From Candidatus Gottesmanbacteria bacterium GW2011_GWA2_43_14 (lineage in GTDB: Bacteria; Patescibacteriota; Microgenomatia; 2-02-FULL-39-11): a stretch of 64,000 bases of DNA. A program made the position numbers and the translations under genes. A model generated the notes under the pieces. It was not told the DNA's origin. It did no database searches and was given only the letters and a program-made list of their open reading frames with translations. Numbering within the stretch: position 1 is the stretch's first letter; each line of letters starts with the position of its first letter. The stretch lies in NCBI GenBank assembly GCA_000999095.1, contig LCFP01000006.1, positions 1,823 through 65,822 on the forward strand, written 5' to 3'. This document shows positions 6,434 to 57,423 of this stretch, one piece after another.

Positions 6434-6434
6434 A

Positions 6435-34830: not shown

Positions 34831-34844
34831 GTTATACTGGAACC

Positions 34845-35900: not shown

Positions 35901-35934
35901 GTTGCGTATCTGCGCCACCTCCCAGGTTGATGAT
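35896..35934. repeat. conserved 39-nt intergenic element, copy 1
   Basis: cctaggttgcgtatctgcgccacctcccaggttgatgat matches 40448..40486 at 36/39 positions. It contains a 22-nt imperfect palindrome and a CACCTCC anti-SD-like core. Confidence 0.6.
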
Positions 35935-35936
35935 AG

Positions 35937-36707: not shown

Positions 36708-36816
36708 ATAGATTGCCACAAGGCTCTGTATTATAACTGAGATGACGAATTTTAAATATACCCCGGGGAAAAGCTTCTTTCTTCCTATTTGGGGGTTAAT
36801 ATTTTATACTGGATGT

Positions 36817-42266: not shown

Positions 42267-43622
42267 ATGGGAAGCAAAAGGTATTACCCTACACTTTTGA
42301 CTTTGGCCGGAATCATAATCCTGACTGCAGGAGTGATCGCCGGCAAAGCGCTTGTTTCCACAGGCACCCGCTTTAACCCTTTCGCCCAGACTTTGCCGAT
42401 GCCTCTTCTTTCCGAACTTTCAGTAAAGCCTGTTGCTGATACCTATGCCAGTCAGACTTCCCAGACGGAAAATTTCGGCAGCGACCCTGTACTTGTTGTC
42501 AGCGGCAAAGGCAATCCCGACAGAGAAAGCTATTTGAAATTTGACATTAAACTAGCCGGAGAAATATATAATGCCAACCTGAAAATGTTCGTTCCGGAAA
42601 ACGGAACGTTGGACGGTCCCGAAATTTACGCCGCCGGCAGCAACTGGAGTGAGACTGAATTAAATTTTCTGAATAAACCGCCGGTTTCCGGCAGCGCCGT
42701 CGATAACAGGGGTTTTATCGGAAGCGGGGAATGGGTGAATTATAATGTTTCAGCGGTTGTCAAAAGCAGCGGGCTGTATACTTTTGTCCTTAAAGCGACC
42801 AGTTTTGACGGAGTCATTTTTTCTTCAAGGGAAGGCCTGAATCCTCCTGTTTTAACGGTTAACTATCTGCCGAAATATCCTTCTCCGACACCGACCTGTG
42901 TTCCGAAGCCGACTTTATGTCCGCCGCCGCTTGCGGGTACACCCGCTACCTGTCCCTATCCCATTCCTCCCCCCGGCGGCTGGTTCTGTCCGGAAAAATC
43001 ACCTACCCCGACTTTGCCTCAGGGCGATGCGGATGAGGACGGCAAAGTCGACGGCCGGGACTATGTCATCTGGTTGCTTCACTACATTCAAAACACGGCA
43101 AACAGCCATAAACACGGAGATTTCAATAATGACGGCATAGTCGACGGGCTGGATTATGTCATCTGGCTCAAGCAATATCTGATTATGCACCAGATTACCC
43201 CTACCTCTAGCCCTTCATGCATACCCTTGCCAGATTGTGTTTACGGCACCAAAGATGAATACGGTGTGATAAGTTATTGCGATCTGCCGGCCGGCAATTA
43301 CTGTCCTTTGCCTACCTGCGTGCCGCCCCCTCCCTGTATTTACGGAGAAATCCAGGAAAACGGATCAGTACTATATTGCGATCCTATGCCGCTGACATCT
43401 TATTGCCGGCCGACGCCGAATCCTACTTGCTCACCAATTCCCGATTCCTGCATTAAATGGGAAAATGGAGTTCCGACTTTAATCTGTGAATCCGCTATGA
43501 ATCTCTTACCGTGGTGCCCGCTGCCGTCCTGCACTCCCAGGCCTGCCTGTCTGGATACGGAACCGAAATGCCTCCTTCCGGAAACTCCTGACATGTGTCC
43601 TCCGGCAACTTCAACTTCCTAA
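42267..43622 (+). CDS. secreted protein: N-terminal beta-sandwich-like domain, internal dockerin-like module, Cys-rich C-terminal tail
   Basis: Signal/anchor. Internal DADEDGKVDGRDYVIWLLHY...GDFNNDGIVDGLDYVIWLKQY forms two Ca-loop repeats. The C-terminus has repeated CxPxPxC...YCD modules. Confidence 0.5.
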   Translation: MGSKRYYPTLLTLAGIIILTAGVIAGKALVSTGTRFNPFAQTLPMPLLSELSVKPVADTYASQTSQTENFGSDPVLVVSGKGNPDRESYLKFDIKLAGEIYNANLKMFVPENGTLDGPEIYAAGSNWSETELNFLNKPPVSGSAVDNRGFIGSGEWVNYNVSAVVKSSGLYTFVLKATSFDGVIFSSREGLNPPVLTVNYLPKYPSPTPTCVPKPTLCPPPLAGTPATCPYPIPPPGGWFCPEKSPTPTLPQGDADEDGKVDGRDYVIWLLHYIQNTANSHKHGDFNNDGIVDGLDYVIWLKQYLIMHQITPTSSPSCIPLPDCVYGTKDEYGVISYCDLPAGNYCPLPTCVPPPPCIYGEIQENGSVLYCDPMPLTSYCRPTPNPTCSPIPDSCIKWENGVPTLICESAMNLLPWCPLPSCTPRPACLDTEPKCLLPETPDMCPPATSTS

Positions 43623-43677
43623 CGCAGTTGAATGTTCCTGTTGACTTTCCCTCAGCTTAATTTTTTAATGGAAACAG

Positions 43678-44781
43678 ATGGATAATAAAGGTATTCCGGT
43701 CTCTGTGATGGCTTTGTTAGGTCTTTTTATTTTAATAACGGGTATCGGAGCAGGAAAAAAATTGGCTTCACAAAGTACAAGATTTTCACCCCTGGCCGTT
43801 AAGCCCAATATTTCACCGACCCCTACTCCTACACCGAAAACTTCCAACTGCAGCCAAACCTGCAATTATTCAGTTAATCCGCAGATTATTTGCCAGATAG
43901 GCTTGTCGTGTTACTATTTGGGCTTGGGTACTCCGGCACCGGGAGCTCCCGGTGTTTGTCGCAAGCCTGGCTGCCAGGAGAAATCCGATTGTATCTGCGC
44001 TCCGACCATTACAGGCATAAACCTGCCTGATTTGGTGGTGACCCAAATGAAAATCGAACTTGAAACAAGATCAGGTTGTTACAATTCTCCTCCCAATTTA
44101 CGATTAAGCGCTTATATCAAGAACATCGGAAATACCGAGGCAGGTCAATTTGTGGTTGATGTAAATGGTGATAGGAAAACAGTTACAGGCGGACTCCCGG
44201 CAGGTCAAACAGCATTTGTTTGGGGTTTTAATCTTGGTTATGGACAGCCCGCTACAGCTTTTGCAGATGCCACCTTTTTAGTCGAGGAATCCAATGAAGA
44301 CAATAATGAACTGACCGCATTGGTCCCGATACCCACACTGCCACCGGTCACTTGTACCCCTACCCCTTCAAGCGGGGCGGAAATTCCCGGTGATGCCAAC
44401 GGGGATAACAAAGTCGACGGACTCGACTATGTCATCTGGCTGAACAACTATAACAAAACAGTTACAACAGGATCAGCTGCAGGGGACTTCGACAAAAACG
44501 GCAAGGTAGACGGCATTGATTATGTGAAATGGTTAATCCAATATATTTTTATGAACCAAATTTCACCCACTCCTACAATTACTCCATCACCGAGCATATC
44601 ACTCCAGCAAACTGCCTGTGAGAACCAGGGATATATATGGAAAATCTTCAGTAACGGCTGTGTTGACAGTTGTGATTTGGCTGCCAATCCCCAGTTGAAT
44701 TGCACGCAGGTTTTGACTCCGGGTTGTGATTGCGGGGCAGACAGCTGTTGGAACGGCACAAGTTGCCAGAATAATCCGTAG
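43678..44781 (+). CDS. secreted protein with CARDB-like domain, internal dockerin-like module and Cys-rich tail
   Basis: The PT linker, PDLVVTQMKIE...NIGNTEAGQFVVDVNGD...ESNEDNNELT is CARDB-like. Then GDANGDNKVDGLDYVIWLNNY...GDFDKNGKVDGIDYVKWLIQY. Confidence 0.5.
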   Translation: MDNKGIPVSVMALLGLFILITGIGAGKKLASQSTRFSPLAVKPNISPTPTPTPKTSNCSQTCNYSVNPQIICQIGLSCYYLGLGTPAPGAPGVCRKPGCQEKSDCICAPTITGINLPDLVVTQMKIELETRSGCYNSPPNLRLSAYIKNIGNTEAGQFVVDVNGDRKTVTGGLPAGQTAFVWGFNLGYGQPATAFADATFLVEESNEDNNELTALVPIPTLPPVTCTPTPSSGAEIPGDANGDNKVDGLDYVIWLNNYNKTVTTGSAAGDFDKNGKVDGIDYVKWLIQYIFMNQISPTPTITPSPSISLQQTACENQGYIWKIFSNGCVDSCDLAANPQLNCTQVLTPGCDCGADSCWNGTSCQNNP

Positions 44782-44805: not shown

Positions 44806-45345
44806 TTACCTTAATTGAATTATTTCCGGCTTCAATTCTTCCACATTATCCGTAACTATCTGCATATCGTCAGGATTAAAATTCAGCCTGCCTGATGCAA
44901 AATCCCCGCCCATAAATTTAATGGAAGCTAGTTGAAACTTTCCCGAGGGTAGTTTTGATCCCGGTGAGGCACCCATGACAAGGATAACAGTGCCTTCGGT
45001 GTTGGCTTTTTCCAGGGGAGTTTCATCGATTGTGGTAGAAAGATTACCGCCGGGTTCAATCTGAGTTATGTTTAACTCTTGAGGATCAAAAGACATATTC
45101 AACCGGGCAAATGCTACTTTTTCTTTCCCGGAGTCGGCCAATACAGTGACGAGAGTTTCATTTGTCACTTCGGTTTTTTCGGCTTTAAAAGACAAAATGA
45201 CCGGTTTAAGCTCCGGATCGAAATTTGCATTTTTACTCCGGTTAAGAAATAGCAACAGAAAAACGGGCACCGCGAACAGAATCAGGATATAAAACCACGG
45301 ATGTAGTTTATTGGTTTTTACCTGAACCGGCCTTTTTTCTTTCAT
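44806..45345 (-). CDS. N-terminally membrane-anchored protein, candidate cohesin-like beta-sandwich (no dockerin)
   Basis: One TM helix and then a ~140-aa domain (KVAFARLNMSFDPQELNITQIEPGG...GTVILVMGASP...GKFQLASIKF). It is paralogous to ORF 49473 and loosely cohesin-like. Confidence 0.4.
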   Translation of the reverse strand: MKEKRPVQVKTNKLHPWFYILILFAVPVFLLLFLNRSKNANFDPELKPVILSFKAEKTEVTNETLVTVLADSGKEKVAFARLNMSFDPQELNITQIEPGGNLSTTIDETPLEKANTEGTVILVMGASPGSKLPSGKFQLASIKFMGGDFASGRLNFNPDDMQIVTDNVEELKPEIIQLR

Positions 45346-45348
45346 TTT

Positions 45349-48279
45349 TTACTTATTGTAATTATTCAGCCAGATGACATAGTCGAGACCGTCCACTTTT
45401 CCCGAGTTATTAAAGTCACCATTTACTGCTCCCGTTGCAGATTGGTTGTAATGGTTAAGCCAGGCTACGTAATCAAGACCGTCAACCTTGTCGTCCCCAT
45501 TGGCATCACCGGGTTTGCCTATTGGCGGTGTTGTCGGTGAGGGACCGGTTGTAACAGGCGGAGAAGTAGGACAGTTGGTGCCGGTGCAGGAGACCTGAAT
45601 AGTGGAGATAAGATTGTCCAGATAATATAAGTCTCCCAGCATCATCGGGGCATCCAACCGTTTGGCCAGTTCATTGTAGCTTTCCTTAAGTATCAGGGCT
45701 TTGGCCTGGAACAGGGAATGGGTTTGCTGGTAAGGTGTCGCCGCACCTTCACCCTGGACTTCCCGGTTCAAAGCCTCAAACCATAACGGTATTTCAGCAG
45801 TGTATGTATTGACAGCGTCCTGAACCTTGGTTTTGGCATTAACATTCAGATAGTCTGCCAAAGCAGGAGTCAGGTACATGAAGTTCCAGGCATGTTTGAG
45901 GGTGGCATAGTAATTTGCCGCGTTATTGGTACCTGTAGTGCCCAGTGTTTGTACCGGACTGATTTGAAAATTGTTTTTTCTCTCGGTGAGTAAAGAGTTC
46001 AAGGTTGTTTCGTAAGGTCCGTATACGGATGACGGCTGGCCGGCCAGTTTGGCCAATTCCACATATCCCTTGTAGCCGGCGATCAATCCGTTAACTGCTT
46101 GCGGCCACATACCGGGACAGGCAGGGGAACAATATGACGGACGAGCGGCGGAAAGTTTGGATTTGGCGGAATTAAAGACGGTTAAAGCCTGAGAAGGATT
46201 CTCTTTGGCATATTGCCACATGGCGTAGAATTGATATGGAGGCCAGTTCCACATATTTTCCCAGAGTTTCGAAGTTGAAGGTCCCATATTGGCAATTTTC
46301 CCGGCCATACCAGGAGGGTAGGAAAAACTGTCCCTGAATTTACCGTCCTTCCAGCCAATGTGGCTGTACTGGTAAGGCGGGAATTGGGTAAATTCGTTTT
46401 GGAGGTATGTTTTTACCTGTGTTTTTAATCCGGCAGATAAATACGGGAGCGCTCTGAGCAGATAATAATGAATGTCTCCCGGGGCATGCCAGTAGTCCAG
46501 TAGCATATCACCCAGGGACGACTGCATATGCTGATCAAAGTTTCCGCCTACACCGTATCCCGGTTTCAGGTGCCCGGCATTGACGATTTTCTGCACTTCC
46601 GTTTCCAGGATATTAACAAGCTGGGCAACAGGCGGCACTCCCGCAGGTTCACCTATGGTTGCCGGGGCGGGGGCGTCTGAGATTGAGGCCGATTTGCCTG
46701 TTCCATTTGGTGAAAAAGCGATCAAGGCGTTGCTTCTTATAGCATACATTTTGCCGTCGTAAATTGCCGGACCGGCGTTGTCCCCATGGGAGGCATAAAA
46801 ACGGCCAACTGTCGTCGGGTCGCTCCAGAAAAATTTTTGCATCTGGCTGAAATAGTTATCGGGCAGGTCGCCGCTGTTTTCACCTATTTTGCCGGTTAAA
46901 TGTCTCCACTGACGGGTTGTATCCAGTGAAGGATAAGCAGTATTTGATTTGGATATATCAGCACTGCCTATAAACCTATCGCAACAAAGATTCCAATAAA
47001 TGTATTTGCCTCCACCCGATAGGCCTGTATACTCATCCAAAGGCCAGGCCAGGCTCTGGCCGAAATGTTTGGATACAGCGAGGCTGAGGAAACTACTGCC
47101 GTATTCCCAGCCTGTAGCGCGGGAGCCGGTAAAGCTGTTGTTTTGAAACAGCGGGGTGCGGAAATACAAGATATTCTGGTTATTGTAGCCGCTGAGAACA
47201 GGCGGATAAGCGGTTTCCCAATCCTGAACTGATCTTAAAACAGGGACGGCATCGGTTTTACCGTCCTTGTCAGTATCAAAATTAACTTCCACCCCATTGG
47301 CCTGGTTCAGGACGAAAACATTTCTTTGGTGCGGATTGCTTTCAAAGTAGTTGGGAATTGTTGTAGACATAAGGGGATTTATGGAAACATCAACGGTTTT
47401 TGTCTGGGAACCGACGGTGTGAGTGACAATTTGACCGGCCGGATTATCAGAGGTAGTTCCCCCTATTATCAAATCCCTTTCGTATCCAAAATCATTGCCT
47501 CCGGTAAAATCTCCTGAAGTATTTCTCTGTTCCTCGGTGCGGGTGAAAATAACCTTGTCGCTGTAAATCACCGGCCACCAGGTGATAAAGCCCATGCCCG
47601 GAAGTTTGACTTTCCAGGACAGGGTTCCGCCTGTGGTTAAAGCGTAAGCATTGCCGTCCTGGGCACCAAAAAAGATTTTACCGCCGGAGTAGGCGGCTGA
47701 AAACAGGATCGGTCCGGGACCATCAGTTTTATATTTCCATTTTTTACTGCCGGTTGAGGCATCCAAAGCATACATGTATCCGTCACGGTTACCGGCAAAG
47801 ACAGTGTTTTCGGCAAAGAGGGGACTGGTTGAAAAACCGGCGCCTCCTTCGGTTGATACATCAAATACCCATTTTTTACTCCCGTTGGAAACATTGATGG
47901 CATGCACTTTGCGGTCCAGTCCGGAAGCATATAAAGTGCCGGCATTGTAAGTAGGAGAGTGTCCGATCGGCATCTCGGTTGCGTAAATCCATTCCTGGGT
48001 GCCGGTATCGGCATTGAAAGCGTATACTCCGCGGGCAGTCGAAACAAAGACCTTGTTTTCCGCTCCCACAGGCTGCACCCTTTGTGAAACATATGGCACC
48101 AGTCTTTTCACCCAAAGGGCTTTTAAAAGTCCCGGTGCTTCATTCGGCGTCCAGGAAGTCCGCTGTGCATTTCCTCCGGCTGTTGACCAGGGAATATCAG
48201 TTTGGGCAATAGCGGGAGACAGGGAAGTCGTCAGAAGAAGGCAGACGGTTAAAGATATTAGTAAAATTTTCACAGCCAT
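45349..48279 (-). CDS. secreted PQQ-like beta-propeller repeat protein with a C-terminal dockerin-like module
   Basis: Repeats of (V/A)YA(F/L)(N/D)xxTGxxKW at the N-terminus, a large additional domain, and C-terminal GDANGDDKVDGLDYVAWLNHYN...GDFNNSGKVDGLDYVIWLNNYNK. Confidence 0.55.
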   Translation of the reverse strand: MAVKILLISLTVCLLLTTSLSPAIAQTDIPWSTAGGNAQRTSWTPNEAPGLLKALWVKRLVPYVSQRVQPVGAENKVFVSTARGVYAFNADTGTQEWIYATEMPIGHSPTYNAGTLYASGLDRKVHAINVSNGSKKWVFDVSTEGGAGFSTSPLFAENTVFAGNRDGYMYALDASTGSKKWKYKTDGPGPILFSAAYSGGKIFFGAQDGNAYALTTGGTLSWKVKLPGMGFITWWPVIYSDKVIFTRTEEQRNTSGDFTGGNDFGYERDLIIGGTTSDNPAGQIVTHTVGSQTKTVDVSINPLMSTTIPNYFESNPHQRNVFVLNQANGVEVNFDTDKDGKTDAVPVLRSVQDWETAYPPVLSGYNNQNILYFRTPLFQNNSFTGSRATGWEYGSSFLSLAVSKHFGQSLAWPLDEYTGLSGGGKYIYWNLCCDRFIGSADISKSNTAYPSLDTTRQWRHLTGKIGENSGDLPDNYFSQMQKFFWSDPTTVGRFYASHGDNAGPAIYDGKMYAIRSNALIAFSPNGTGKSASISDAPAPATIGEPAGVPPVAQLVNILETEVQKIVNAGHLKPGYGVGGNFDQHMQSSLGDMLLDYWHAPGDIHYYLLRALPYLSAGLKTQVKTYLQNEFTQFPPYQYSHIGWKDGKFRDSFSYPPGMAGKIANMGPSTSKLWENMWNWPPYQFYAMWQYAKENPSQALTVFNSAKSKLSAARPSYCSPACPGMWPQAVNGLIAGYKGYVELAKLAGQPSSVYGPYETTLNSLLTERKNNFQISPVQTLGTTGTNNAANYYATLKHAWNFMYLTPALADYLNVNAKTKVQDAVNTYTAEIPLWFEALNREVQGEGAATPYQQTHSLFQAKALILKESYNELAKRLDAPMMLGDLYYLDNLISTIQVSCTGTNCPTSPPVTTGPSPTTPPIGKPGDANGDDKVDGLDYVAWLNHYNQSATGAVNGDFNNSGKVDGLDYVIWLNNYNK

Positions 48280-48282
48280 ATA

Positions 48283-49455
48283 TTAATAATTGCTTAACCA
48301 GATCACATAATCAAGCCCGTCCACTTTGCCGTTTCCGTCAAAATCTCCGGAAACCGAGCCATTAGTTACGGTTTTGTTATAGTTGTTGAGCCAGATGACA
48401 TAGTCGAGTCCGTCGGCTTTCCCGTCTCCATTGGCATCGCCCGGCTTGCCGGCTACCGTAACAGAAGGAGGAGAGGCAGAACCGGTGAACCAGGAAGCGG
48501 CGTAAATATTGGTTTTGAAAAATTTGAGCATGTGAGCGGCAGCTTTTTCTGCCCCTTTTCCGGCAACATTTTCAATCGGATGTGTGCCGTCCGTAGTCTC
48601 AAAATCAGAGGAAAACCAAGACAGACCTTCACTATTGGCATGGCCGTCGTCAGCCCAGAGGTAGGGACCCCAGGCCAAAACCGGACCGTTAGAATAATAG
48701 ACTTTGGCGTTTGTCCCGTTTATCTGGTCAAGAATTACCCGGCGCGCGGCAATGGCGCTTTCATAGGCATAAGGCTCATCGTTTAAATCTTTTGTGGCAT
48801 AACCGCCGTAGGTGCGGTTGGAGAAAAAAATAATTTTGGCATTGGGAAAGCGGTTGCCGATCTCATCGATAATGATTCTCTGATGTTCGGCTAAAGTTGA
48901 GACATACTCACCGCCTTCGGCCAGACAGTCAGTACAATTGCTGCCGTCCTGCGGTGCAAAATTGGCATGGAGCATCCAAATAGCCTGAACCTGGGCTGAG
49001 GTAACGCCGCTGTTGGTTAATTGGAGGGTGACATAATCCCAATTTTCGCCATTAGCCCATTTCTCAGCTACAACCGAGCCGCGGGCGCCGTTGACGATCA
49101 CTACCTTGGACGAGACACCGTTATCATTGGCCGCCTGCCCGATAAAAGCATCGGATTTTCTCCTGGTATTGGACATGCCCATGGTCAGAAGCACAATTTT
49201 ACCGGAAGAACTTGGATTGCCGGAGCCGTCCCTGGAGGTAATTTGGGACCGGGCTTCCGACAGTTTCTGGGCGTGGGCTGCGGGAGGATTATTTTGATAA
49301 TTGCCGTACAGGCCGCCGGTTTCATTCTGGTATTTCTGGCTGCCCGTCATATCCATAAGAGGTATGCAGTCGCTGGTGCAAATATTAGCGTAAACCCTGG
49401 GAGGAATTAAAAAAAAAGAGCCGAAGGCCACCAGAATGGCAAGAATAATTGTCAC
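48283..49455 (-). CDS. secreted SGNH/GDSL-like hydrolase (putative carbohydrate esterase) with a C-terminal dockerin-like module
   Basis: ..LLTMGMSNT (block I-like) ... TDGTHPIEN (block V DGxHP). Dockerin GDANGDGKADGLDYVIWLNNY...GDFDGNGKVDGLDYVIWLSNY. Paralog of ORF 52186. GTG start. Confidence 0.5.
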   Translation of the reverse strand: MTIILAILVAFGSFFLIPPRVYANICTSDCIPLMDMTGSQKYQNETGGLYGNYQNNPPAAHAQKLSEARSQITSRDGSGNPSSSGKIVLLTMGMSNTRRKSDAFIGQAANDNGVSSKVVIVNGARGSVVAEKWANGENWDYVTLQLTNSGVTSAQVQAIWMLHANFAPQDGSNCTDCLAEGGEYVSTLAEHQRIIIDEIGNRFPNAKIIFFSNRTYGGYATKDLNDEPYAYESAIAARRVILDQINGTNAKVYYSNGPVLAWGPYLWADDGHANSEGLSWFSSDFETTDGTHPIENVAGKGAEKAAAHMLKFFKTNIYAASWFTGSASPPSVTVAGKPGDANGDGKADGLDYVIWLNNYNKTVTNGSVSGDFDGNGKVDGLDYVIWLSNY

Positions 49456-49472
49456 GGAATGTTCCTGTTATT

Positions 49473-50276
49473 TCAGCCCTTGGCTGCCCTGCGCCAAATT
49501 TCAAAATCGATCAGGTCAACTTTACCATCCTGATTGAGATCGGCAATTTTGCTTGTCAGTGACTTTTGATATTCAGCTTTCCATTGATTATAGCAGTCAA
49601 TCGAGCCTACCACGTTGCAGGCTTGAGGGTTGCCCGTAGGAGGTGTCAATGTCGGAGGAGTATTAGTCGGAGGTAGCGTCGGATTGGTCCCGCCGTTGTT
49701 TATGGCGGCGCTTGCAGCGTTTACGGTTAATTCCGTACCCCCCGCGCTGACGATTTGCATATCGGAAGCAAGGAATGTGAGCGTTGAGGTATCCGTGTTA
49801 TTGGAGCTTACCGAAGCAAGAGTGAAAGAAGCAAATTCGAAGGAAGAAGCCGGTTGAGTATCCGTGGGGGAAGCGGCAATCACAATAACGGCTTTGCCGC
49901 TTGTATTGGCATTGGCCATGGTCGTTTTCTCAACCACAGTTGATAGGCTGGCTGTGGTGGTGATTTCGGAATCAAATTTAACTTTCGTTTTGTCAAAAAC
50001 GATAACCACCCGGGCAAAAGCAACAGCCTGCCCATGGGGGTCAAGCATGATTTTGACATTTGCATTCGGCGGCAAATTGAAAGAGGCAGGAGAAAATGCG
50101 GCGTCAACCGAGCCGGTTAACTGTGCCTTCGAGAAGTAATTGATAGTATTCTGGACCGCAATAACAGTTATGGGCAGAATCAGTAGAATTAAGATAAAGG
50201 CTAATGGATTCCCTATGGATTTGTTGTCCAGGGTGCGGTAAATTTTTTTGATTTTTCTGGCAGCCGGTTTTATCAT
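49473..50276 (-). CDS. N-terminally membrane-anchored cohesin-like candidate with a single C-terminal dockerin-like half-repeat
   Basis: TM helix, then VAFARVVIVFDKTKVKFDSE...GKAVIVIAASP...FEFASFTLA...MQIVSAGG, paralogous to ORF 44806. A PT linker, then ADLNQDGKVDLIDFEIW. ATG at 50276. Confidence 0.4.
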   Translation of the reverse strand: MIKPAARKIKKIYRTLDNKSIGNPLAFILILLILPITVIAVQNTINYFSKAQLTGSVDAAFSPASFNLPPNANVKIMLDPHGQAVAFARVVIVFDKTKVKFDSEITTTASLSTVVEKTTMANANTSGKAVIVIAASPTDTQPASSFEFASFTLASVSSNNTDTSTLTFLASDMQIVSAGGTELTVNAASAAINNGGTNPTLPPTNTPPTLTPPTGNPQACNVVGSIDCYNQWKAEYQKSLTSKIADLNQDGKVDLIDFEIWRRAAKG

Positions 50277-50323
50277 CTCCTTCAATCAAAGCATAAAACA
50301 GGGTCGCTAATCAAGAAGAATAT

Positions 50324-52132
50324 TCATTTGTTATAATTATTTAACCAAATAACGTAGTCCAGTCCGTCCGCTTTGCCGTTTTTATCAAAGTCACCGCCGG
50401 CCGCTCCCGTGGTTACAGTTTTATTGTAGTTATTCAGCCAGACAACATAATCCAGGCCGTCAACCTTTCCGTCTCCATTGGCATCTCCTGCTTTGCCCGC
50501 CGGGGAAGTAGGAGTCGGGGATTTGGTGGCAGGAGGTGTCGGGGAAGCAGTGACCGATAAAGGCATGGTTAGCTCGTAAAGCCTGCCGTCAGTAAGACCG
50601 AGGTTATCCTCAACGGTCAAAGTTACAAAATATTTACCGTTAGCTGAATAAGTATGTGATACTTCTTTACTGTTTGAACTGGTTCCATCATCAAAATTCC
50701 AGGTGTATTTGCTGACAGTACCGATCCTGTCAGATGAGGCTCCGGCATTAAAATTGACGGTCAAGGCATTGATGCCGGGACTTACGGAAAAATTGGCCAC
50801 GGGAGGCTGGTTCCCGGGTTGGTTAAGGCTGTTTTGGGCTGCGGTCAGTTCATTTGAAAGAAAGCTGACCAGTTGGGGGTGCTGTGAGGACAAATTATTT
50901 TTTTCACCGATATCCGAAGCTAAATTAAAGAGCATCTGGGGATTTGAAACCATACCGCATTCAGCCATCCAGGTTTGGCCGCCTGAGCTTTGCGTCATCA
51001 GTTTCCATTTTCCGGCAATGACGGCTTTATTTTTTGACAGCCAGGTGAAAGCGATATCGTCATCAGGACGCTCGCCGTTGCCGAAGATAACCGATGACAA
51101 ATCCTGGCCGTCGATGGCACGGTCCATGGGAAGGGCAGCTCCGGTCAATTTTGCGAAAGTCGGATATAGGTCAAATATTGCCCCGATTTTATCAACTGTC
51201 CTGCCGGAAGATATAAATCCAGGCCAATTGGCGATAAACGGCACCCTGATGCCTCCTTCGTAATAAGTTCCTTTACCGCAATACAAAGGACCGGCGGAGC
51301 CGCCCTGCGGGGCATTGGCTATAGCCGGCCCGTTATCGCTGGCAAAAACAATCAGGGTGTTGTTCCTGAGACCAAGCTTGTCGATTTCCGCCACAACCTG
51401 GCCGACACCCCAATCCATTTCTTCGACAACATCGCCGTAAGTCCCGTCAAGAGATTTGCCGGCAAAATCAGGGTGGGCAACAAGGGGAGCATGAGGAGCG
51501 GTATATGCTAAATAGAGAAAAAACGGTATGTTTTTGTTTTGATTGATAAAATTCACCGCCTCCGAGGTAAAATTATGAGTCAGCATCGACAGGTCAGCCG
51601 GATTTTCAATTACCTCCGTACCTCTCATCAGAGGAATCTGCCCTCCGTTATAATTGTTCGAATACCAGACGCCGTACCAGTAATCAAAACCATGAAGAGT
51701 GGGGTTGTATTGGGTTTGATGACCAAGGTGCCATTTGCCGATTATGCCCGTTTTATAGCTTTTGCTTTTTAAAAGTTCCGCTATGGTAATTTCCGATGCA
51801 GCCAGGCCTTTTTGGGAAGAGGTACCGGAAATGGAGATGATTTCATCGATGCCTACCCGTCTTGAATAGCGGCCGGTTACAAAAGCTGCCCTGGTCGGGC
51901 AGCAGACACCTGAGTTTGCATAGAATTGGCTGAATTTGCTGCCTCCCTGGGCCAGTTTGTCGATATTGGGAGTTTTTATCTTTGTTGAACCGTAACTACC
52001 CAAATCACCGTAGCCAAGATCATCGGCCAGGATAAAGACGATATTCGGTTTAACAGGAAGTGTCTGGGCGGAGATACCGGCGGGTACAGCCAGCGGAAAA
52101 AGAAAAAAAAATATAAAGACGAATTTTTTCAT
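50324..52132 (-). CDS. secreted Cys-type sulfatase with PKD domain and C-terminal dockerin-like module
   Basis: PNIVFILADDLGYGDLGSYGS...CCPTRAAFVTGRY is the sulfatase N-terminal signature with the C-x-P-x-R formylglycine site. A PKD-like segment (YTWNFDDGTSS...GKYFVTLTVED). C-terminal GDANGDGKVDGLDYVVWLNNY...GDFDKNGKADGLDYVIWLNNYNK. Confidence 0.75.
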   Translation of the reverse strand: MKKFVFIFFFLFPLAVPAGISAQTLPVKPNIVFILADDLGYGDLGSYGSTKIKTPNIDKLAQGGSKFSQFYANSGVCCPTRAAFVTGRYSRRVGIDEIISISGTSSQKGLAASEITIAELLKSKSYKTGIIGKWHLGHQTQYNPTLHGFDYWYGVWYSNNYNGGQIPLMRGTEVIENPADLSMLTHNFTSEAVNFINQNKNIPFFLYLAYTAPHAPLVAHPDFAGKSLDGTYGDVVEEMDWGVGQVVAEIDKLGLRNNTLIVFASDNGPAIANAPQGGSAGPLYCGKGTYYEGGIRVPFIANWPGFISSGRTVDKIGAIFDLYPTFAKLTGAALPMDRAIDGQDLSSVIFGNGERPDDDIAFTWLSKNKAVIAGKWKLMTQSSGGQTWMAECGMVSNPQMLFNLASDIGEKNNLSSQHPQLVSFLSNELTAAQNSLNQPGNQPPVANFSVSPGINALTVNFNAGASSDRIGTVSKYTWNFDDGTSSNSKEVSHTYSANGKYFVTLTVEDNLGLTDGRLYELTMPLSVTASPTPPATKSPTPTSPAGKAGDANGDGKVDGLDYVVWLNNYNKTVTTGAAGGDFDKNGKADGLDYVIWLNNYNK

Positions 52133-52185
52133 GATGAATTCAGTATAGAATCCAATCAGGCAAATTTACAAATAGGACAGACGGA

Positions 52186-53370
52186 TTATTTATTGTAATT
52201 GACCAGCCAGATGACATAGTCCAGGCCGTCAACTTTGCCGTTGCCGTCAAAATCTCCCGAAGCTGAGCCGTTGGATACGGTTTTATTATAGTTATTGAGC
52301 CAGACTACATAGTCGAGACCGTCAACCTTGTTGTCTCCGTTGGCGTCACCCGGTTTTTGCCCTGATGGGGGCGTCGGTGTTTTGCTTGGTGAGACATTCA
52401 TTGTCGGAGGCGGTGCAGATCCCGTAAACCAGGAAGCGGCCAAAGGGCTGGTTTTAAAGAAATTCATTAACATCTGAGCCACCTTGAGTTCTCCTGAGGC
52501 TGATGGATGTCCGCCGTCATCCTGGAAATCTTCGCATTTCCAGACAAGGCCGTCGCTGCGCGGATTGAGACCGTCTGCCCAGATATAAGGGGCCCAAACA
52601 ATAACCGGACTGTTGTTATAGTCAATTTCTGAAGTGCCTGTCGGATTGGTGATACCCATTTGATCCTGGATCAACCAGCGGAAAGCAAAACCGCTTTCAT
52701 AGGCAAGAGGTTCAATACTGGAGTGACCGGAAGCATATCCGGCATAAATGCGGCTGGATACATAGATAATTTTAATTGCAGGGTAGTCTGTTTTTAATTT
52801 TTTGACCATATAAACAAGATTAGATTTAAGCAGCATTGCATCTTCAAGTCCGGGGGTTTCAGCGGTATCCCTGTTTGCCTGTTTCAGCCAAACGACCTGA
52901 ACCTGTTCTTTTGAGAGACCGGCTGAGGAAATCCGGCTTGAAAGGACGCTCCAAGGATTGGTGCCCGGTTCCGGAGTTACCCATCTGTCGGCACTTTGGC
53001 CGCTTTGGGCGCCGTTGACGGTGACTATTGAATTTTGAACTCCAGGGTCGGAGTCGACCAATTCCTGAAAAACAATGAATTCCTGGGAAACATTGGACAT
53101 TCCCACAGATATAAAGCCGATTTTTCCGTTTACCGGTTTGACCTGTCCGGCAGCTATTTGAGCCATTTGCAGGTGGGCAAGGGGAACGGAGTTGCTGCCG
53201 TTTACATATAAACCGCCTGACTGCCCTTTGTATAACTGGTTGGCGCCCATATCAATAAGGGGAATAAAACCGACAGAGGTATTGGCGCAATTTTTCGCTG
53301 CCAGAAGAGGATTAACTGAAATTTGCATAAGAAGCAGAAATAACAAGACTGAGGTCAATTTTTTTGACAT
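52186..53370 (-). CDS. secreted SGNH/GDSL-like hydrolase with a C-terminal dockerin-like module
   Basis: ..FISVGMSNV ... DDGGHPSASG (DGxHP) ... dockerin GDANGDNKVDGLDYVVWLNNY...GDFDGNGKVDGLDYVIWLVNYNK. Confidence 0.5.
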   Translation of the reverse strand: MSKKLTSVLLFLLLMQISVNPLLAAKNCANTSVGFIPLIDMGANQLYKGQSGGLYVNGSNSVPLAHLQMAQIAAGQVKPVNGKIGFISVGMSNVSQEFIVFQELVDSDPGVQNSIVTVNGAQSGQSADRWVTPEPGTNPWSVLSSRISSAGLSKEQVQVVWLKQANRDTAETPGLEDAMLLKSNLVYMVKKLKTDYPAIKIIYVSSRIYAGYASGHSSIEPLAYESGFAFRWLIQDQMGITNPTGTSEIDYNNSPVIVWAPYIWADGLNPRSDGLVWKCEDFQDDGGHPSASGELKVAQMLMNFFKTSPLAASWFTGSAPPPTMNVSPSKTPTPPSGQKPGDANGDNKVDGLDYVVWLNNYNKTVSNGSASGDFDGNGKVDGLDYVIWLVNYNK

Positions 53371-53374
53371 AAGT

Positions 53375-54697
53375 TTATTTGTTATAATTATTCAGCCAGA
53401 TAACGTAATCGAGTCCGTCAACTTTACCGTTTTTATCAAAGTCCCCGCCGGCTGCTCCCGTAGTTATGGATTTATTGTAGTTATTCAGCCAGATGACATA
53501 ATCCAGCCCGTCAACCTTGCCGTCCCCGTTGGCGTCCCCCGGTTTTGCGAGATCTCCGGTTATAACTGGTATGGTCGGGCTGAGTGTGATTTTTGTCGGA
53601 GTGACCTGGGCCGGAGTGCTGGTTGCCGTGCCCGGTCCGGCTGATAAGGTGCCTTTGATTGTGGACAACTTATCAGCGCCGGTATAAACAAAGACAAAAT
53701 TTTTACCGTCGGCGGATGTCCATTTATTGGAAAAATTCCAGAAGACTGTTTTGGCTTCCGCCCCCTGAAGACCGACAGACCAGGCATTGGCAAAAAGGAC
53801 TGTTTTCCAGGGATTTTGTACGTTATTCGGATCTCCCCAGGGCGCCGGAGCCTCATAAATACCGATATATCCGCCGGTTCCCCTTTTTATCTGCTGGGTG
53901 ACCAGAAAATACTTCTTAAGCCCTGCATTATATACGGCGCTGGTTCTCATGACTCCGTTGGCGACGTCGGTAAAGACCGGTTTTTTGAGGCTGACATTAC
54001 TGTTCCATTGGGGCACACCACCGGAGTAGCCGGTGAAGAACTGGTAGTTTGCACGGTTCATGGGATCGCTTTTGGGTACGCGCATAAGGTATATATACCC
54101 GGGTTTCTGTACGTCCCAGGTGCTGTTCTGGATACCTGGGGCATAGATATAAAGATATGACGGATCGCCTCCGGCATAGTCTTTGCCGTATTGGAGGAAG
54201 GTAGGACAGAAAAAATTGCCGCCGTTGGACTGGTCGAATTGCCAGGAAGCCTGAGCCCATTGCGTACCGTGGGTGGTTGATTTATACAGTTTCTGGAAAC
54301 TGTAGGCTGAGTTGTCCGATGCATTTCCGCATACCCACATATAAAGTATACCTCCGACAGAAATAATGCCGTAACTTTTGCCGTTGCCCGTCCATAAGTT
54401 TTGGCCCGTAAAATTGTCTGCTCCTCCGGATATTTTGGCTACGCCCTGGCTGTACTTGGCGCTGTCTCCGAAGCCTCCGCCGTCTCCGAAATTGGTGTAT
54501 TGGGCGTCATCGTCTGCCCAGGTCACCGGCCAGTTGTCACTGCCGCTGGTTATGGAATAGGATTTTTTACTGGCGGTATCAAAACTTACGGAAATTGAAC
54601 TTTGGGCGTAGGGGGCAGCGGCAAAGACGGGGACCGAATATAAATTGAGGGAGACAGTGGTCAAAAAAAATCCCGTCAACAACAGGAGCAGCTTCAT
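53375..54697 (-). CDS. secreted BNR/Asp-box-type beta-propeller protein (sialidase/glycosidase-like) with a C-terminal dockerin-like module
   Basis: WADDDAQYTNFGDGGGFG and an Asp-box-like STTHGTQW. Paralog of ORF 60081. Dockerin GDANGDGKVDGLDYVIWLNNY...GDFDKNGKVDGLDYVIWLNNYNK. Confidence 0.45.
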   Translation of the reverse strand: MKLLLLLTGFFLTTVSLNLYSVPVFAAAPYAQSSISVSFDTASKKSYSITSGSDNWPVTWADDDAQYTNFGDGGGFGDSAKYSQGVAKISGGADNFTGQNLWTGNGKSYGIISVGGILYMWVCGNASDNSAYSFQKLYKSTTHGTQWAQASWQFDQSNGGNFFCPTFLQYGKDYAGGDPSYLYIYAPGIQNSTWDVQKPGYIYLMRVPKSDPMNRANYQFFTGYSGGVPQWNSNVSLKKPVFTDVANGVMRTSAVYNAGLKKYFLVTQQIKRGTGGYIGIYEAPAPWGDPNNVQNPWKTVLFANAWSVGLQGAEAKTVFWNFSNKWTSADGKNFVFVYTGADKLSTIKGTLSAGPGTATSTPAQVTPTKITLSPTIPVITGDLAKPGDANGDGKVDGLDYVIWLNNYNKSITTGAAGGDFDKNGKVDGLDYVIWLNNYNK

Positions 54698-54745
54698 ATA
54701 ATTACTTTATGTGAGCGGGAATAAATGATCAAGAAGGAAACATGC

Positions 54746-56056
54746 CTATATGTTGTAATTGTTCAGCCAGATAACGTAGTCCAGCCCGTCTACTTTCCCG
54801 GAATTATTGAAATCACCACTTCCTGCTCCCGCAACCTGCTGGTTGTAGTGGTTAAGCCAGATGACATAATCCAGTCCGTCAACTTTAGTATCTCCGTTGG
54901 CATCTCCCTGTTTACCGATCGTCCCTACATTTATGGTGACTGTGGCTGTGTTGGAAAAAGCAAGGCCGTCATTTACCCTCCATTTAAAAGTATCGTTGCC
55001 CGAATAGCCCGAGACAGGTGTATAAACCCAATCATTGTCGGTTGCGGCACCGTTTATAGAGCCGTGAAGTGGCAGTTGAGTAACCGAGTATATATATGGA
55101 CCCGGTCCGTCAGGATCAGCAAAGGAAAAGATTATCGAGAGGGGTGTCTCTACCGCAGTAGAGTAGGTGCTGTTTTGAACAGTCGGAGGATGGTTGACTC
55201 CGGTTGGTTCTGCAGTTGGCGTCGGTCCTGTATTGCCGCACGAATTGCCGGCCGGCCATTCTATTTTTGAAGGAGTGCCTCCATTGCCAAAGCCGGCGGC
55301 GCAGGCGTTATCAAGGGCGTAATTGGCCAATGATATGGAAACAGATTCGTCAGGTCTATGGTACTCTCCAACGACAACAGGTTTTCCCAGGCTTGTCCTG
55401 GCGTTATTGACTTTTGTTGCTACTTGAGGACCTGTGGTAGATTCCGTGGGAGGATTGGTTTGCAGAACCATATAATCGCACCAGCTTTGCGAGCAGTATT
55501 CCCATTTATTTGGCGTCTGGTGTGCTGCCAACGGTTTATTTGTCAAACTGTCCATGTGATTTCCTATCTCCTGAATTTCGCTTGCCGTCCAATATTCATT
55601 CGATTCCAGACCAACCACATAACTGTTGGTTTTGGCGTCAATTTGGGGAATAAATGCGCTTAAATCAGTTTTTATTGCCGCAACAGTTTTACCTTTCCAG
55701 GTTCCGGTATCACTGGTAAGCCAGACTACCGCTTTGATACCGGCAGTGTTTAATTCCGTCAATAAAGAATTAAATCCCGATGGGTTTGGATAATAATTGA
55801 AAGCGCTGGCAGTGACGGACAGGTAAGCGTGGGTATAGCCTCTAGATTTAAGTTGAGAGATATAAGCCGAACGCTGGCTGGCAGATGCGGTCGGGAAATA
55901 GGTTGTGCCGCAATTGCTGCCGCAGGCCGGCAGGGATAGAAAATCAGTGGCATGGGGAAGAACTCCGGCAGTGCTTTCAGCTTTAACCGGCTTGACGGAA
56001 ATCATGCTTATAATCAGGAAGAATGAACAAATAATCAGGCCAGCGTAATTTTTCAT
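54746..56056 (-). CDS. secreted clan GH-A-like TIM-barrel glycoside hydrolase with an Ig/cadherin-like domain and a C-terminal dockerin-like module
   Basis: VVGLESNEYW (NE acid/base-like) and PVVVGEYH (GE nucleophile-like). A beta-sandwich segment (YSVTQLPLHGSINGAATDNDWVYTP..TVTINV). Dockerin GDANGDTKVDGLDYVIWLNHY...GDFNNSGKVDGLDYVIWLNNYNI. Confidence 0.45.
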   Translation of the reverse strand: MKNYAGLIICSFFLIISMISVKPVKAESTAGVLPHATDFLSLPACGSNCGTTYFPTASASQRSAYISQLKSRGYTHAYLSVTASAFNYYPNPSGFNSLLTELNTAGIKAVVWLTSDTGTWKGKTVAAIKTDLSAFIPQIDAKTNSYVVGLESNEYWTASEIQEIGNHMDSLTNKPLAAHQTPNKWEYCSQSWCDYMVLQTNPPTESTTGPQVATKVNNARTSLGKPVVVGEYHRPDESVSISLANYALDNACAAGFGNGGTPSKIEWPAGNSCGNTGPTPTAEPTGVNHPPTVQNSTYSTAVETPLSIIFSFADPDGPGPYIYSVTQLPLHGSINGAATDNDWVYTPVSGYSGNDTFKWRVNDGLAFSNTATVTINVGTIGKQGDANGDTKVDGLDYVIWLNHYNQQVAGAGSGDFNNSGKVDGLDYVIWLNNYNI

Positions 56057-56079
56057 ATTAATTGATCATAACATTGAGA

Positions 56080-57423
56080 TTATTTGTTGTAGTTATTCAA
56101 CCAGATAACATAATCCAGACCATCTACCTTGCCTGAATTATTGAAGTCACCACTTCCTGCTCCCGTTGCCGACTGGTTGTAGTGGTTAAGCCAGACAACA
56201 TAATCCAGCCCGTCAACTTTGCCGTCCCCGTTGGCATCACCTGGCTTTCCGGATACTATTGGGGTAGGTGTTTTCGTTGGCAAAATGGAAGGACCACCCT
56301 CAAATAAAGGATTTGAACCGGTTATATTAGCCTCAATTATGTGGGGTATCCCTCCACTCGTCTTTGGGGAATCGTCGACACCAACGCCAGCAAAAACCAC
56401 ACCGTTTTTCTGGTTCCAAAGAATATATGTTCCTCCCGCCCCTGCGCCCCAAGCCCAGGATGTCGAGGCATTTTTATAAAAATCCCCAGCGGAATTGGTC
56501 CATGTCAAATAACCATAAGGAGATTCAGGAAAGGTCGCTTTAGTTAAAAAGCTGATTACCCCGTCGTTACAACCATCGTAATTTACCAACATTCCTGCGG
56601 TTTTTTTAGTTTCCTGTTCTTCAACAAACCATTGGGGAACCAGTACTGTGTTGTTCCATCTTCCTCGTGCTAGCATTAAAAGACCCAATCTACCCATGTC
56701 TTCCAAATCCAGCACCAACCTAATGCCGTCGGTATTTAGCTGCGTATTCCAGCCCTGCATTCCGATAGCTGAGAAATATGCCTGATTAAGCACTGTTTTA
56801 TAATTTGAGGCAGTATAGCTGCCACCAGGACTGCCCCAAGCTTTAAATAATGCCTCATTCAAATTCTTTAAATTGAGGTCAGAGTAAGTCCACATCTGGC
56901 CGGGTGCATAGTCAATGCTGTCCCCACAGCCCGGATAATCAAAGCCTGCAGACTGTGTAATTACGTGCCACCAAGTCGCGTCTTTATCCTTACCTGTTAA
57001 ATTTGTTTGATAAAAACTAATTTTTTGAGTTTTAAAGTCGGGAATTTTCCCCTGATTGACTGCTGCACCGACGGTCAGGGCATGCCAGGTTTTCCGCAAC
57101 GATTTGACCTCGGAAGTCTGGTTAAAATCTCCAGATACATGCACAAGATAGCCATGACGCCACAATGCCCATCGCGTCGCTTTACCAGACAGATCAGTTA
57201 TTATATTACCGCTAAGATTAACCGTCTGGGGTGTTTGTTGATTTTGTTGGGACAATGTTTGGCCGGGAGGAGGGAAATAATAACCTGCAGCATTTATTCC
57301 TTTGGGCAAGAAAAGGGTCAAAAAAAATAACAACGACAAATATCTTTTAGTCGAACGTTCCACACCTAAATTCGCACAGACTCGCCTAACCATCTCGAGA
57401 CAAAAAAATTTTTTACTTACCAT
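56080..57423 (-). CDS. secreted beta-lactamase-fold serine hydrolase (esterase/PBP-like) with a C-terminal dockerin-like module
   Basis: An SLRK S-x-x-K motif within ..SEVKSLRKTWHALTVGAAV.. Dockerin GDANGDGKVDGLDYVVWLNHY...GDFNNSGKVDGLDYVIWLNNYNK. The 5' end overlaps the next gene by 11 nt, so an alternative ATG at 57393 is possible. Confidence 0.45.
   Translation of the reverse strand: MVSKKFFCLEMVRRVCANLGVERSTKRYLSLLFFLTLFLPKGINAAGYYFPPPGQTLSQQNQQTPQTVNLSGNIITDLSGKATRWALWRHGYLVHVSGDFNQTSEVKSLRKTWHALTVGAAVNQGKIPDFKTQKISFYQTNLTGKDKDATWWHVITQSAGFDYPGCGDSIDYAPGQMWTYSDLNLKNLNEALFKAWGSPGGSYTASNYKTVLNQAYFSAIGMQGWNTQLNTDGIRLVLDLEDMGRLGLLMLARGRWNNTVLVPQWFVEEQETKKTAGMLVNYDGCNDGVISFLTKATFPESPYGYLTWTNSAGDFYKNASTSWAWGAGAGGTYILWNQKNGVVFAGVGVDDSPKTSGGIPHIIEANITGSNPLFEGGPSILPTKTPTPIVSGKPGDANGDGKVDGLDYVVWLNHYNQSATGAGSGDFNNSGKVDGLDYVIWLNNYNK

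Follow-up and report, generated by a model that had tools for sequence, protein, structure and literature searches.

Two predicted membrane-anchored proteins with a cohesin fold embedded in a dockerin gene array of a Candidatus Gottesmanbacteria bacterium

Results

A dockerin gene array with two embedded, predicted anchored proteins

The window analyzed here, a 64-kb stretch of contig LCFP01000006.1 of Candidatus Gottesmanbacteria bacterium GW2011_GWA2_43_14, contains one tight minus-strand run of genes in which those of two small proteins, W179 and W270, lie among genes for dockerin-tagged secreted proteins, with gaps to their neighbours of 3, 3 and 17 nt. W179 is a short, predicted membrane-anchored protein with one cohesin and no dockerin, and W270 consists of an N-terminal helix, a cohesin, a Pro/Thr linker and an atypical dockerin. 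The locus comprises the following features:

42267..44781 (+), two convergent genes with internal dockerins and Cys-rich tails (CBM96 plus dockerin; CARDB plus dockerin)
44806..45345 (-), W179, an ORF of 179 aa (UV73_C0006G0046, KKS97692.1, UniRef A0A0G1DJD4)
44818..45204 (-), cohesin-fold domain of W179, aa 48-176
45244..45300 (-), predicted TM helix of W179, PWFYILILFAVPVFLLLFL (hydropathy KD 2.52, checked translation)
45349..49455 (-), two dockerin-tagged secreted proteins between the cohesin genes (Dockerin_1 above the gathering threshold, short signal peptides)
49473..50285 (-), W270, assigned by ORF and database identity (UV73_C0006G0049, KKS97695.1, UniRef A0A0G1DIN3)
49476..49631 (-), atypical dockerin-like module of W270, ~52 aa (Pfam Dockerin_1, homologs, hhalign)
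49506-49541 (-), canonical Ca2+ loop of this module, DLNQDGKVDLID
49632..49697 (-), Pro/Thr-rich linker of W270, NGGTNPTLPPTNTPPTLTPPTG (from the sequence)
49698..50117 (-), cohesin-fold domain of W270, aa 57-196 (AF2 pLDDT 94.8, pTM 0.88)
50154..50210 (-), hydrophobic helix of W270, NPLAFILILLILPITVIAV (KD 2.57)
50324..61334 (-), nine more co-directional dockerin-tagged secreted proteins
61326-62384 (+), a third predicted anchored protein without dockerin
62412..63689 (-), a further dockerin-tagged protein

The two genes between W179 and W270 encode a 976-aa PQQ-like beta-propeller and a 390-aa protein whose family was not recognised. W179 is the final gene of the minus-strand dockerin operon, its start lying 3 nt beyond the stop codon of the 976-aa dockerin gene, and the convergent pair at 42267..44781 forms the edge of the array. 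The proteins of 50324..61334 include a sulfatase with PKD, a GH5/GH39-like, a beta-lactamase-fold, a DUF4185 and a Big_9/cadherin-like protein, together with others of unrecognised family. Sixteen dockerin-bearing genes were counted in the window, W270 among them, and seven more in the next 10 kb (locus L005); the array runs more than 10 kb past the window end. In all, at least 22 secreted enzymes carry a near-identical, internally symmetrical dockerin at the end or, in some cases, at the start.

For W270 two starts are available, the annotated ATG at 50276 (NCBI KKS97695.1, 267 aa) and a TTG at 50285, 9 nt upstream, which gives 270 aa. A sequence-only reading of this DNA had placed two paralogous ORFs at 44806-45345 and 49473-50276; both are present, and their products align with each other by BLASTP with E = 8e-15 and 32% identity across 110 aa. 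The same reading had taken them as the only small array proteins that lack the full dockerin pair, which had to be given up, since 61326-62384 (+) encodes a third anchored, dockerin-less protein. Chance ORFs were dropped as an explanation, because the exact proteins are found in NCBI, in UniRef and in several assemblies, and hundreds of homologs exist.

The domains of W179 and W270 adopt a predicted cohesin fold

By sequence alone the two domains matched Pfam Cohesin below the threshold or not at all. The Cohesin HMM search that had been proposed with the earlier reading gave 15.6-16.5 bits (E 0.01-0.02) for W179 with PF00963, below the gathering threshold of 24.1, and no match for W270. In phmmer searches of PDB sequences both proteins returned only noise (a KDPG aldolase, a Fab fragment), and the family profiles A2 and A4 returned zero matches. 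Hence, the family has no sequence-only tie to solved cohesins, and structure prediction was needed. High-confidence models were obtained for both domains, and solved cohesins ranked above every other beta-sandwich, with a clear margin over all other folds in two independent searches with two independent models. For the W270 domain the best 50 Foldseek matches in the PDB were all cohesins (best E 5.5e-9, TM 0.76-0.78). Type I cohesins fitted better than type II (TM 0.74-0.78 versus 0.55-0.65). Both domains are thus predicted to be flattened beta-sandwiches (jelly-rolls) of ~140 aa whose nearest relatives are solved cohesins. A carbohydrate-binding (CBM) or pilin-like sandwich was dropped as an identity for the domain, because cohesins rank above all such folds. 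The cohesin-like, beta-rich and Cys-free character proposed earlier was borne out: the cohesin-fold domains contain no Cys, and the only two Cys of W270 sit in its C-terminal module.

The domain occurs exactly twice in the 64-kb window (six-frame HMM scan), and its family profile comprises 737 representatives in a 50%-identity library. Among isolated family domains 5 of 86 matched Pfam Cohesin (best E 8.7e-6), and among full-length members Cohesin was found in 9 of 105 (best E 1.7e-14) and Dockerin_1 in 26 of 105; elsewhere the family cohesins are also fused to surface domains (CBM96, Big_7, FN3, CarboxypepD_reg). A homologue search with profile A4 yielded only 5 proteins, none of which added to the family picture. 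The UniRef name of both W179 and W270 is "Cohesin domain-containing protein".

We read W179 and W270 as proteins of the cohesin fold and, most likely, as the sites at which the array enzymes dock on the cell surface, in keeping with the tethering role that had been proposed earlier. It would be quite improbable that the sandwiches are instead generic surface modules (carbohydrate- or wall-binding domains, adhesin or pilin-like stalks, spacers) that lie in the array only through clustering of surface-protein genes. Against such modules stand the ranking of cohesins over every other fold, the match of some family members to Pfam Cohesin over this same domain, and the proximity to dockerin genes in all eight related loci, distant members included (see below); furthermore, without a cohesin the more than 20 dockerins of this genome would have no partner.

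W270 carries an atypical dockerin

What had been read in W270 as a half-dockerin turned out to be a complete dockerin-like module of ~52 aa, in which a C-x7-C loop is followed by a helix (YNQWKAEY), a linker, a Ca2+ loop and a second helix (FEIWRR). With Pfam Dockerin_1 (PF00404) it scored 15.9 bits, under the gathering threshold of 22.9, over profile positions 32-51 only. When aligned with the array dockerins by hhalign, the module matched with a probability of 87% (E 3.9e-6, columns 12-47 against 15-52), the aligned parts being helix 1, the linker, the second Ca2+ loop and helix 3, whereas in place of the first Ca2+ loop there is the conserved C-x7-C loop. The classical layout of two tandem repeats of ~22 aa, each with a 12-residue, EF-hand-like Ca2+ loop and a helix, was not found in this module, since only the second loop is canonical. 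One canonical loop together with the hhalign match points to a homologous but degenerate, single-loop dockerin. Ten homologs retain the module, and both Cys are invariant among them; at the linker position the homologs also have linkers, of varying length. A consistent split in dockerin flavour was seen: the dockerins of cohesin-bearing proteins are of the D-L/I-x-D-F type or contain Cys, and those of the enzymes are of the D-G-x-D-Y type.

W179 and W270 have signal-anchor-like N-termini

As had been proposed, a hydrophobic helix lies near the N-terminus of each protein, and it is the only one: a hydropathy scan detected no further TM-like segment in either. The best 19-residue window of W179 (KD 2.52) starts at aa 16, after a K/R-rich stretch of 15 aa with 5 K/R, and that of W270 in its 267-aa form (KD 2.57) at aa 23 with 7 K/R ahead, the K/R-rich N-terminus measuring 22-25 aa depending on the start. 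Across the family a hydrophobic segment lies N-terminal to the cohesin domain in 145 of 157 proteins. The array enzymes, in contrast, have short cleavable signal peptides, with 0-2 K/R in the n-region and A-x-A or A|Q sites after it, whereas the long, K/R-rich N-termini of W179 and W270 resemble signal anchors. Neither SLH repeats nor an LPXTG motif was found in W179 or W270, and the N-terminal helix with its positive-inside n-region is the candidate for envelope attachment. For W179 this helix is predicted to be a signal anchor with N-in/C-out topology. After the helix of W270 there is a motif, VQxTxNYxSKA|Q, conserved in close homologs and class-wide, and its SKA|Q site could be a cleavage site. 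The cohesin of W179 lies only ~13 residues from the membrane, and at this distance it may offer poor access to enzymes of 400-1000 aa beneath a cell wall.

Both classes recur beside dockerin genes

In each of the eight independent loci examined (8/8) the cohesin/dockerin gene neighbourhood was present again. Cohesin-family genes were found within 10 kb of DG-x-DY dockerin genes, often adjoining them, in L001/L007, L002/L003, L004, L006, L008, L011 and L012, and distant family members lie directly downstream of a lone dockerin-tagged Pel9A-like enzyme. Two members of the short class, P0044 and P0045, lie on contigs too short to show gene context and were left out of the locus comparison. A search for related loci with the narrow alignment A5 gave 3 loci only, all from Gottesmanbacteria. 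The nearest relatives of W179 are short anchor-plus-cohesin proteins of ~170-200 aa, and those of W270 are proteins with one or more cohesins, a linker and a one-loop dockerin. As to whether related arrays always keep both genes, the two classes occur together in a second locus of Gottesmanbacteria (L001/L007), and L004 and L006 have apparent counterparts of them; L008 has a W270-type gene alone and no W179-type within the ~18 kb of available DNA.

Discussion

We consider it likely that W179 and W270 are divergent surface cohesins and the receptors of a display system that resembles a cellulosome but is non-cellulolytic, and that W270 acts as an adaptor on a W179-type anchor. In such a display, the array enzymes would be exported through ordinary cleavable signal peptides and then caught at the cell surface by Ca2+-dependent binding of their dockerins to divergent cohesin modules that this CPR bacterium would present on the outside of its cytoplasmic membrane. 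W179, with its putative signal-anchor helix and membrane-near cohesin, would be the basal anchor. The divergent dockerin of W270 combines a single Ca2+ loop with a disulfide loop. Its most likely partner is another cohesin, that of W179 being the obvious candidate, and W270 would in this way hold its own cohesin, to which enzymes would bind, clear of the membrane or wall. The earlier idea of W270 docking via its C-terminal module to another copy is a plausible inference. With two cohesins for more than 20 dockerins, the larger part of the enzymes would be unbound at any given time.

The helix of W270 bears on this arrangement, since with it docking onto W179 is not required for surface attachment, and, if it is an anchor, a two-tier model becomes less necessary. 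Alternatively, W179 and W270 could be parallel, independent anchors in a single tier, both binding enzyme dockerins directly, and the W270 module would bind not a cohesin of the same cell but a component of the cell wall or S-layer, a different cell (e.g., an episymbiosis host) or a substrate. This we judge to be rather unlikely, although several observations fit it: each protein has its own N-terminal helix and positive-inside n-region, the loss of one Ca2+ loop and the gain of a conserved disulfide loop may have moved the specificity of the module off cohesins, L008 has no W179-type gene in its available ~18 kb, and family cohesins also occur fused to other surface domains. On the other hand, the module still aligns to dockerins in helix 1, Ca loop 2 and helix 3, and the two classes are distinct and conserved; they co-occur in L001/L007 as well as in the window, and L004 and L006 have apparent counterparts. 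There are also two dockerin flavours, and in characterised cellulosomes such a split marks scaffoldin-to-anchor docking, as with the type I versus type II pairs of C. thermocellum.

The proposed adaptor role of W270 has its closest parallel in two-tier anchoring systems, i.e., the type II dockerin of CipA on SdbA/OlpB/Orf2p in C. thermocellum and the ScaA/ScaB adaptors of A. cellulolyticus. As in these, W270 bears a cohesin and a dockerin of another flavour than that of the enzymes, and the cluster also encodes a dockerin-less, predicted cell-bound cohesin, W179. Unlike in these, W270 has a Pro/Thr linker, and no X-module, ahead of its dockerin, in which C-x7-C stands in place of the first Ca2+ loop; both cohesins are nearer to type I than to type II, and W270 has a helix of its own. 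Neither a type II cohesin, with its extra helix and beta-flaps, nor an X-module-dockerin dyad, which define a type II pair, was found in W179 or W270. When compared with the type I cohesins of scaffoldins and anchoring proteins in cellulosomes (C. acetobutylicum CaCohA2 6KGC/6KGF, C. thermocellum CipA Coh2 1OHZ and OlpA 3UL4, A. cellulolyticus ScaC 4UYP), the domains share just 8-18% sequence identity with PF00963 sub-threshold or absent. In place of SLH repeats or sortase/LPXTG anchoring there is a predicted N-terminal TM helix, and in place of long scaffoldins one cohesin per protein; the cargo is mostly non-cellulase (sulfatase, beta-lactamase fold, PQQ-like propellers, DUF4185, unknowns), and the host is a CPR bacterium. 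Non-cellulosomal pairs (Archaeoglobus fulgidus 2XDH; Clostridium perfringens GH84/GH33 2JH2, 2VO8, 2W1N; Ruminococcus bromii amylosome Sca5 7URP/7UVG), whose structures were among the fold matches, likewise place the fold outside cellulose degradation, in simple proteins with one or two cohesins. Those systems have few dockerin proteins, or form toxin or amylase complexes, whereas here the genes of more than 20 dockerin proteins, which two predicted anchored cohesins would serve, lie in a single ~32-kb array.

The cohesin label of W179 and W270 is already in public databases, and similar systems have been reported from related CPR bacteria. A cellulosome has reportedly been claimed for Roizmanbacterium by Geesink et al. 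in 2020. In the portions of two reports that were accessible, cohesin/dockerin ("cellulosome") components are described for Cand. Shapirobacterales (expressed), Cand. Roizmanbacterium and the Saccharibacteria member T. rhizospherense (10.1101/2021.08.21.457207; 10.1101/211649). As far as these portions go, the reports infer a minimal cohesin-dockerin system in the same superphylum (Shapirobacterales and Roizmanbacterium being Microgenomates, as Gottesmanbacteria are) from domain annotation and offer no analysis of architecture or locus, and a TM-anchored short class, a disulfide-loop dockerin or a large array was not found described in them. Our literature search found no paper on dockerins in Gottesmanbacteria. 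We raise tentatively, and with some doubt, that this is a previously uncharacterised TM-anchored two-tier system of Gottesmanbacteria and related CPR bacteria, in which the W179 class would specifically bind a new dockerin subtype, whose disulfide-stapled C-x7-C loop takes the place of the first Ca2+ site, and the W270-class cohesin on its Pro/Thr stalk would display any of more than 20 interchangeable hydrolases on the surface of an ultra-small cell, targeting polymers or host envelopes and not cellulose.

If the binding pairs are confirmed, a TM-anchored single cohesin and a one-loop disulfide dockerin would offer protein-display engineering a pair of compact components. Since this divergent family of 737 representatives mostly escapes Pfam, cohesin counts made via Pfam or dbCAN in CPR genomes and metagenomes are probably underestimates. 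Members of the CPR, whose genomes are tiny, are believed to rely on hosts or scavenging. The cargo, as judged from its sequences (a sulfatase, beta-lactamase-fold esterases/peptidases, GH5/39-like and DUF4185 proteins, PQQ-like propellers), points to scavenging of glycans or envelopes and not to cellulolysis, and the fact that over 20 dockerin-tagged enzymes and two cohesins take up more than 30 kb of the genome implies that the surface display of hydrolases would be central to the lifestyle of this organism.

Predicted cohesin fold of two probably membrane-anchored paralogs

The window lies within a 100.6-kb scaffold of Candidatus Gottesmanbacteria (CPR, Microgenomates), and its dockerin-tagged gene array contains two proteins that a sequence-only reading had proposed to be membrane-anchored paralogs serving as cohesin-like receptors for the dockerin enzymes. 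Both correspond to deposited proteins at the proposed coordinates:

44806-45345, minus strand: W179 (UV73_C0006G0046, 179 aa), a short anchor plus a cohesin-like domain; exact match
49473-50276, minus strand: W270 (UV73_C0006G0049, 267 aa), a helix, cohesin-like domain, Pro/Thr linker and atypical dockerin; annotated ATG start, the mechanical ORF starting at a TTG 9 nt upstream (50285)

Their paralogy was confirmed by BLASTP (E 8e-15, 32% identity, 110 residues), and a six-frame scan of the 64 kb with a family HMM detected the W179 and W270 domain copies only. As proposed, each protein has a single N-terminal hydrophobic helix (hydropathy value 2.5-2.6) with 5-7 Lys/Arg ahead of it, and no second TM-like segment was found by hydropathy in either. 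Family-wide, a hydrophobic segment lies N-terminal to the first cohesin-family domain in 145 of 157 proteins. The n-regions of W179 and W270 are long and basic, as is typical of signal anchors; those of the array enzymes are short, with A-x-A or A|Q cleavage-type sites (the bar marks the putative signal-peptidase cleavage point).

The Pfam Cohesin model matched W179 below threshold (15.6-16.5 bits; gathering threshold 24.1) and did not match W270, and sequence searches with phmmer and family profiles found no solved structure for the family. We then gathered homologs, excised the domain and predicted the structure of the W270 copy from a 20-sequence alignment (pLDDT 94.8, pTM 0.88). When this model was compared with the PDB by Foldseek, cohesins filled all top 50 ranks (best E 5.5e-9), with TM scores of 0.76-0.78 across the whole domain, and the matches included the dockerin-complexed cohesin crystals 6KGF, 5LXV, 5NRM, 1OHZ and 2CCL. 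Furthermore, Pfam Cohesin matched 5 of 86 isolated family domains (best E 8.7e-6) and 9 of 105 full-length members (best E 1.7e-14), and UniRef names both W179 and W270 'Cohesin domain-containing protein'. Because of these structural matches, family matches and names, the domains are clearly not of an unrelated fold, and they almost certainly have the cohesin fold. In some metagenomic relatives (P0036, of 2276 aa, and P0018-P0020) the cohesin domain occurs in 3 to 9 tandem copies, so the family does include true multi-cohesin scaffoldins.

The C-terminal module and N-terminal motif of W270

Two further features of W270 are conserved among its homologs:

49476-49631, minus strand: atypical dockerin-like module, conserved in homologs P0003-P0012, P0028 and P0029
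50154-50120 region, minus strand: conserved TM and juxtamembrane sequence, present in W270 and at the N-termini of W270-class homologs

The C-terminal module had been taken for a half-dockerin, and Pfam detects only its second repeat. When profiles of the W270-class module and of 13 enzyme dockerins of the window were compared, module columns 12-47 aligned with enzyme-dockerin columns 15-52 (probability 87%, E 3.9e-6). Since the aligned part comprises helix 1, the linker, the second Ca2+ loop and helix 3, the module is a whole dockerin-like module and the earlier reading has to be revised. Close W270 homologs have in common these ~52 aa, C-x7-C-[YF]-x-Q-W-x-x-E-[YF]-x8-A-D-L-N-x-D-G-x-V-D-L-x-D-F-E-x-W-R-R, which terminate in W-R-R-A-x-Y-P, and the module is kept in cohesin-bearing proteins of several Gottesmanbacteria. 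Both Cys of the C-x7-C loop are invariant among the close homologs, and this loop, which takes the place of the first Ca2+ loop, is probably disulfide-bonded.

The N-terminal consensus of the W270 class is NP-x-x-F-x-L-x-LL-x-LP-x-T-x-x-x-VQQT-x-NY-L-S-K/R-A-Q-T. Its conserved VQQTxNYLSKA|Q motif follows the helix and is similar to the A|Q sites for signal peptidase in the array enzymes; the W179 class has a Lys-rich juxtamembrane stretch instead. Such strong conservation is unusual for a mere anchor, and the sequence might be cleaved by signal peptidase or be recognised in some sorting step.

Gene context in the window

The genes of W179 and W270 are part of one closely spaced series of co-directional genes on the minus strand. 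The gene of a 976-aa dockerin protein ends, with its stop codon, 3 nt ahead of the W179 start. W270 is preceded at ~40 nt by a dockerin-tagged sulfatase and followed after 17 nt by a 390-aa dockerin protein. Besides these two, all genes from 42267 to 63689 encode a Dockerin_1 module except one, and three genes of this interval depart from the rest:

61326-62384, plus strand: third dockerin-less protein, 352 aa (NCBI: 323 aa), opposite to the rest of the array
42267-43622 and 43678-44781, plus strand: convergent CBM96+dockerin and CARDB+dockerin genes

Hence W179 and W270 are not, as had been proposed, the only small array proteins without a dockerin pair. In the third protein, which has no Pfam match, a very basic N-terminus precedes a TM helix (about aa 45); the protein is repetitive, with recurring Y/F-x-x-G motifs, looks from its sequence like a beta-propeller, and could be an additional anchored component. 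The CBM96 and CARDB proteins carry the dockerin mid-protein, followed by long Cys/Pro-rich tails, where the rest of the array has C-terminal dockerins, and they have in common the N-terminal motif AGK-x-L-x-S-x-x-TRF-x-P past the hydrophobic segment. The enzyme dockerins are internally duplicated and ~80% identical to each other. The array runs >10 kb past the window end, where seven further dockerin proteins are encoded (L005, the adjoining scaffold sequence, 1-9954), at least one with an N-terminal dockerin (8632-9951; loops at aa 31 and 61), and no further cohesin copy was found in L005 1-9954. Immediately upstream of the array, a run of four GT4-family glycosyltransferase genes is followed by a glycogen/starch-synthase-like gene (39011-40441); the stretch (33607-40441, plus strand) may be a surface-glycan locus beside the display system.

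Related loci and the two cohesin classes

Each independent locus that could be read has dockerin genes of the D-G-x-D-Y type no more than 10 kb from a family cohesin gene, which usually adjoins them. These loci come from Gottesmanbacteria RIFCSPLOWO2_01_FULL_42_22 (L001/L007), RBG_16_37_8 (L004) and RIFCSPHIGHO2_01_FULL_40_15 (L006 and L008), together with L002/L003, L011 and L012. L008 has the same layout as the window in that a W270-type gene stands amid seven dockerin genes. In L002/L003 and L011, the latter on a 765-kb contig, a Pel9A-like beta-helix (pectate-lyase-like) enzyme with a canonical C-terminal dockerin is immediately followed, after about 10 nt, by the gene of a distant family cohesin, so that a one-enzyme/one-cohesin gene pair is conserved in two divergent lineages:

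L002 8392-11182; L003 8241-11031; L011 7021-10852: Pel9A-like enzyme and cohesin pair

The closest relatives of W179 are short proteins (about 170-200 aa) of anchor and cohesin only, and those of W270 have cohesin(s), linker and a one-loop dockerin. L001/L007 has both classes, its 196-aa gene lying about 2 kb from a two-cohesin gene. The dockerin flavours consistently differ, being D-L/I-x-D-F/L or Cys-containing in cohesin proteins and D-G-x-D-Y in enzymes.

A candidate surface-display system

In terms of fold and genomic logic, these results support the receptor and tether interpretation: W179 and W270 are likely to be functional dockerin receptors that tether the array enzymes, and a cohesin-like fold without dockerin binding is very improbable. 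The results fit best with a minimal surface-display system resembling a cellulosome, in which Sec-secreted enzymes would be captured by membrane-held cohesins. In Clostridium thermocellum, type I and type II cohesin-dockerin pairs coexist, and by analogy the presence of two cohesin classes and of two dockerin flavours suggests a pair of specificities. W179 might then be a basal anchor that binds the atypical dockerin of W270, whose cohesin, on its Pro/Thr stalk, would bind enzymes; this wiring, drawn by analogy, is tentative. The conserved VQQTxNYLSKA|Q motif fits it, and since SKA|Q resembles the enzyme sites, W270 could be released there and then re-docked. That both proteins are parallel, single-tier anchors, the atypical dockerin having another target, is rather unlikely.

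The kind of system is already known, and W179 and W270 already carry a cohesin-domain label in UniRef. Expressed cohesin and dockerin proteins are described for Cand. Shapirobacterales (CPR) in 10.1101/2021.08.21.457207, which cites Geesink et al. 2020 for 'cellulosomes' in Cand. Roizmanbacterium. For a Saccharibacterium, 10.1101/211649 reports a 'two-subunit cellulosome'. In the literature searched we found no mention of dockerins in Gottesmanbacteria, and no description of a TM-anchored short cohesin class, a C-x7-C dockerin variant or an array of >20 genes. The short TM-anchored cohesins, the C-x7-C dockerin and the >20-gene array are thus the variant features of this system that are worth testing.
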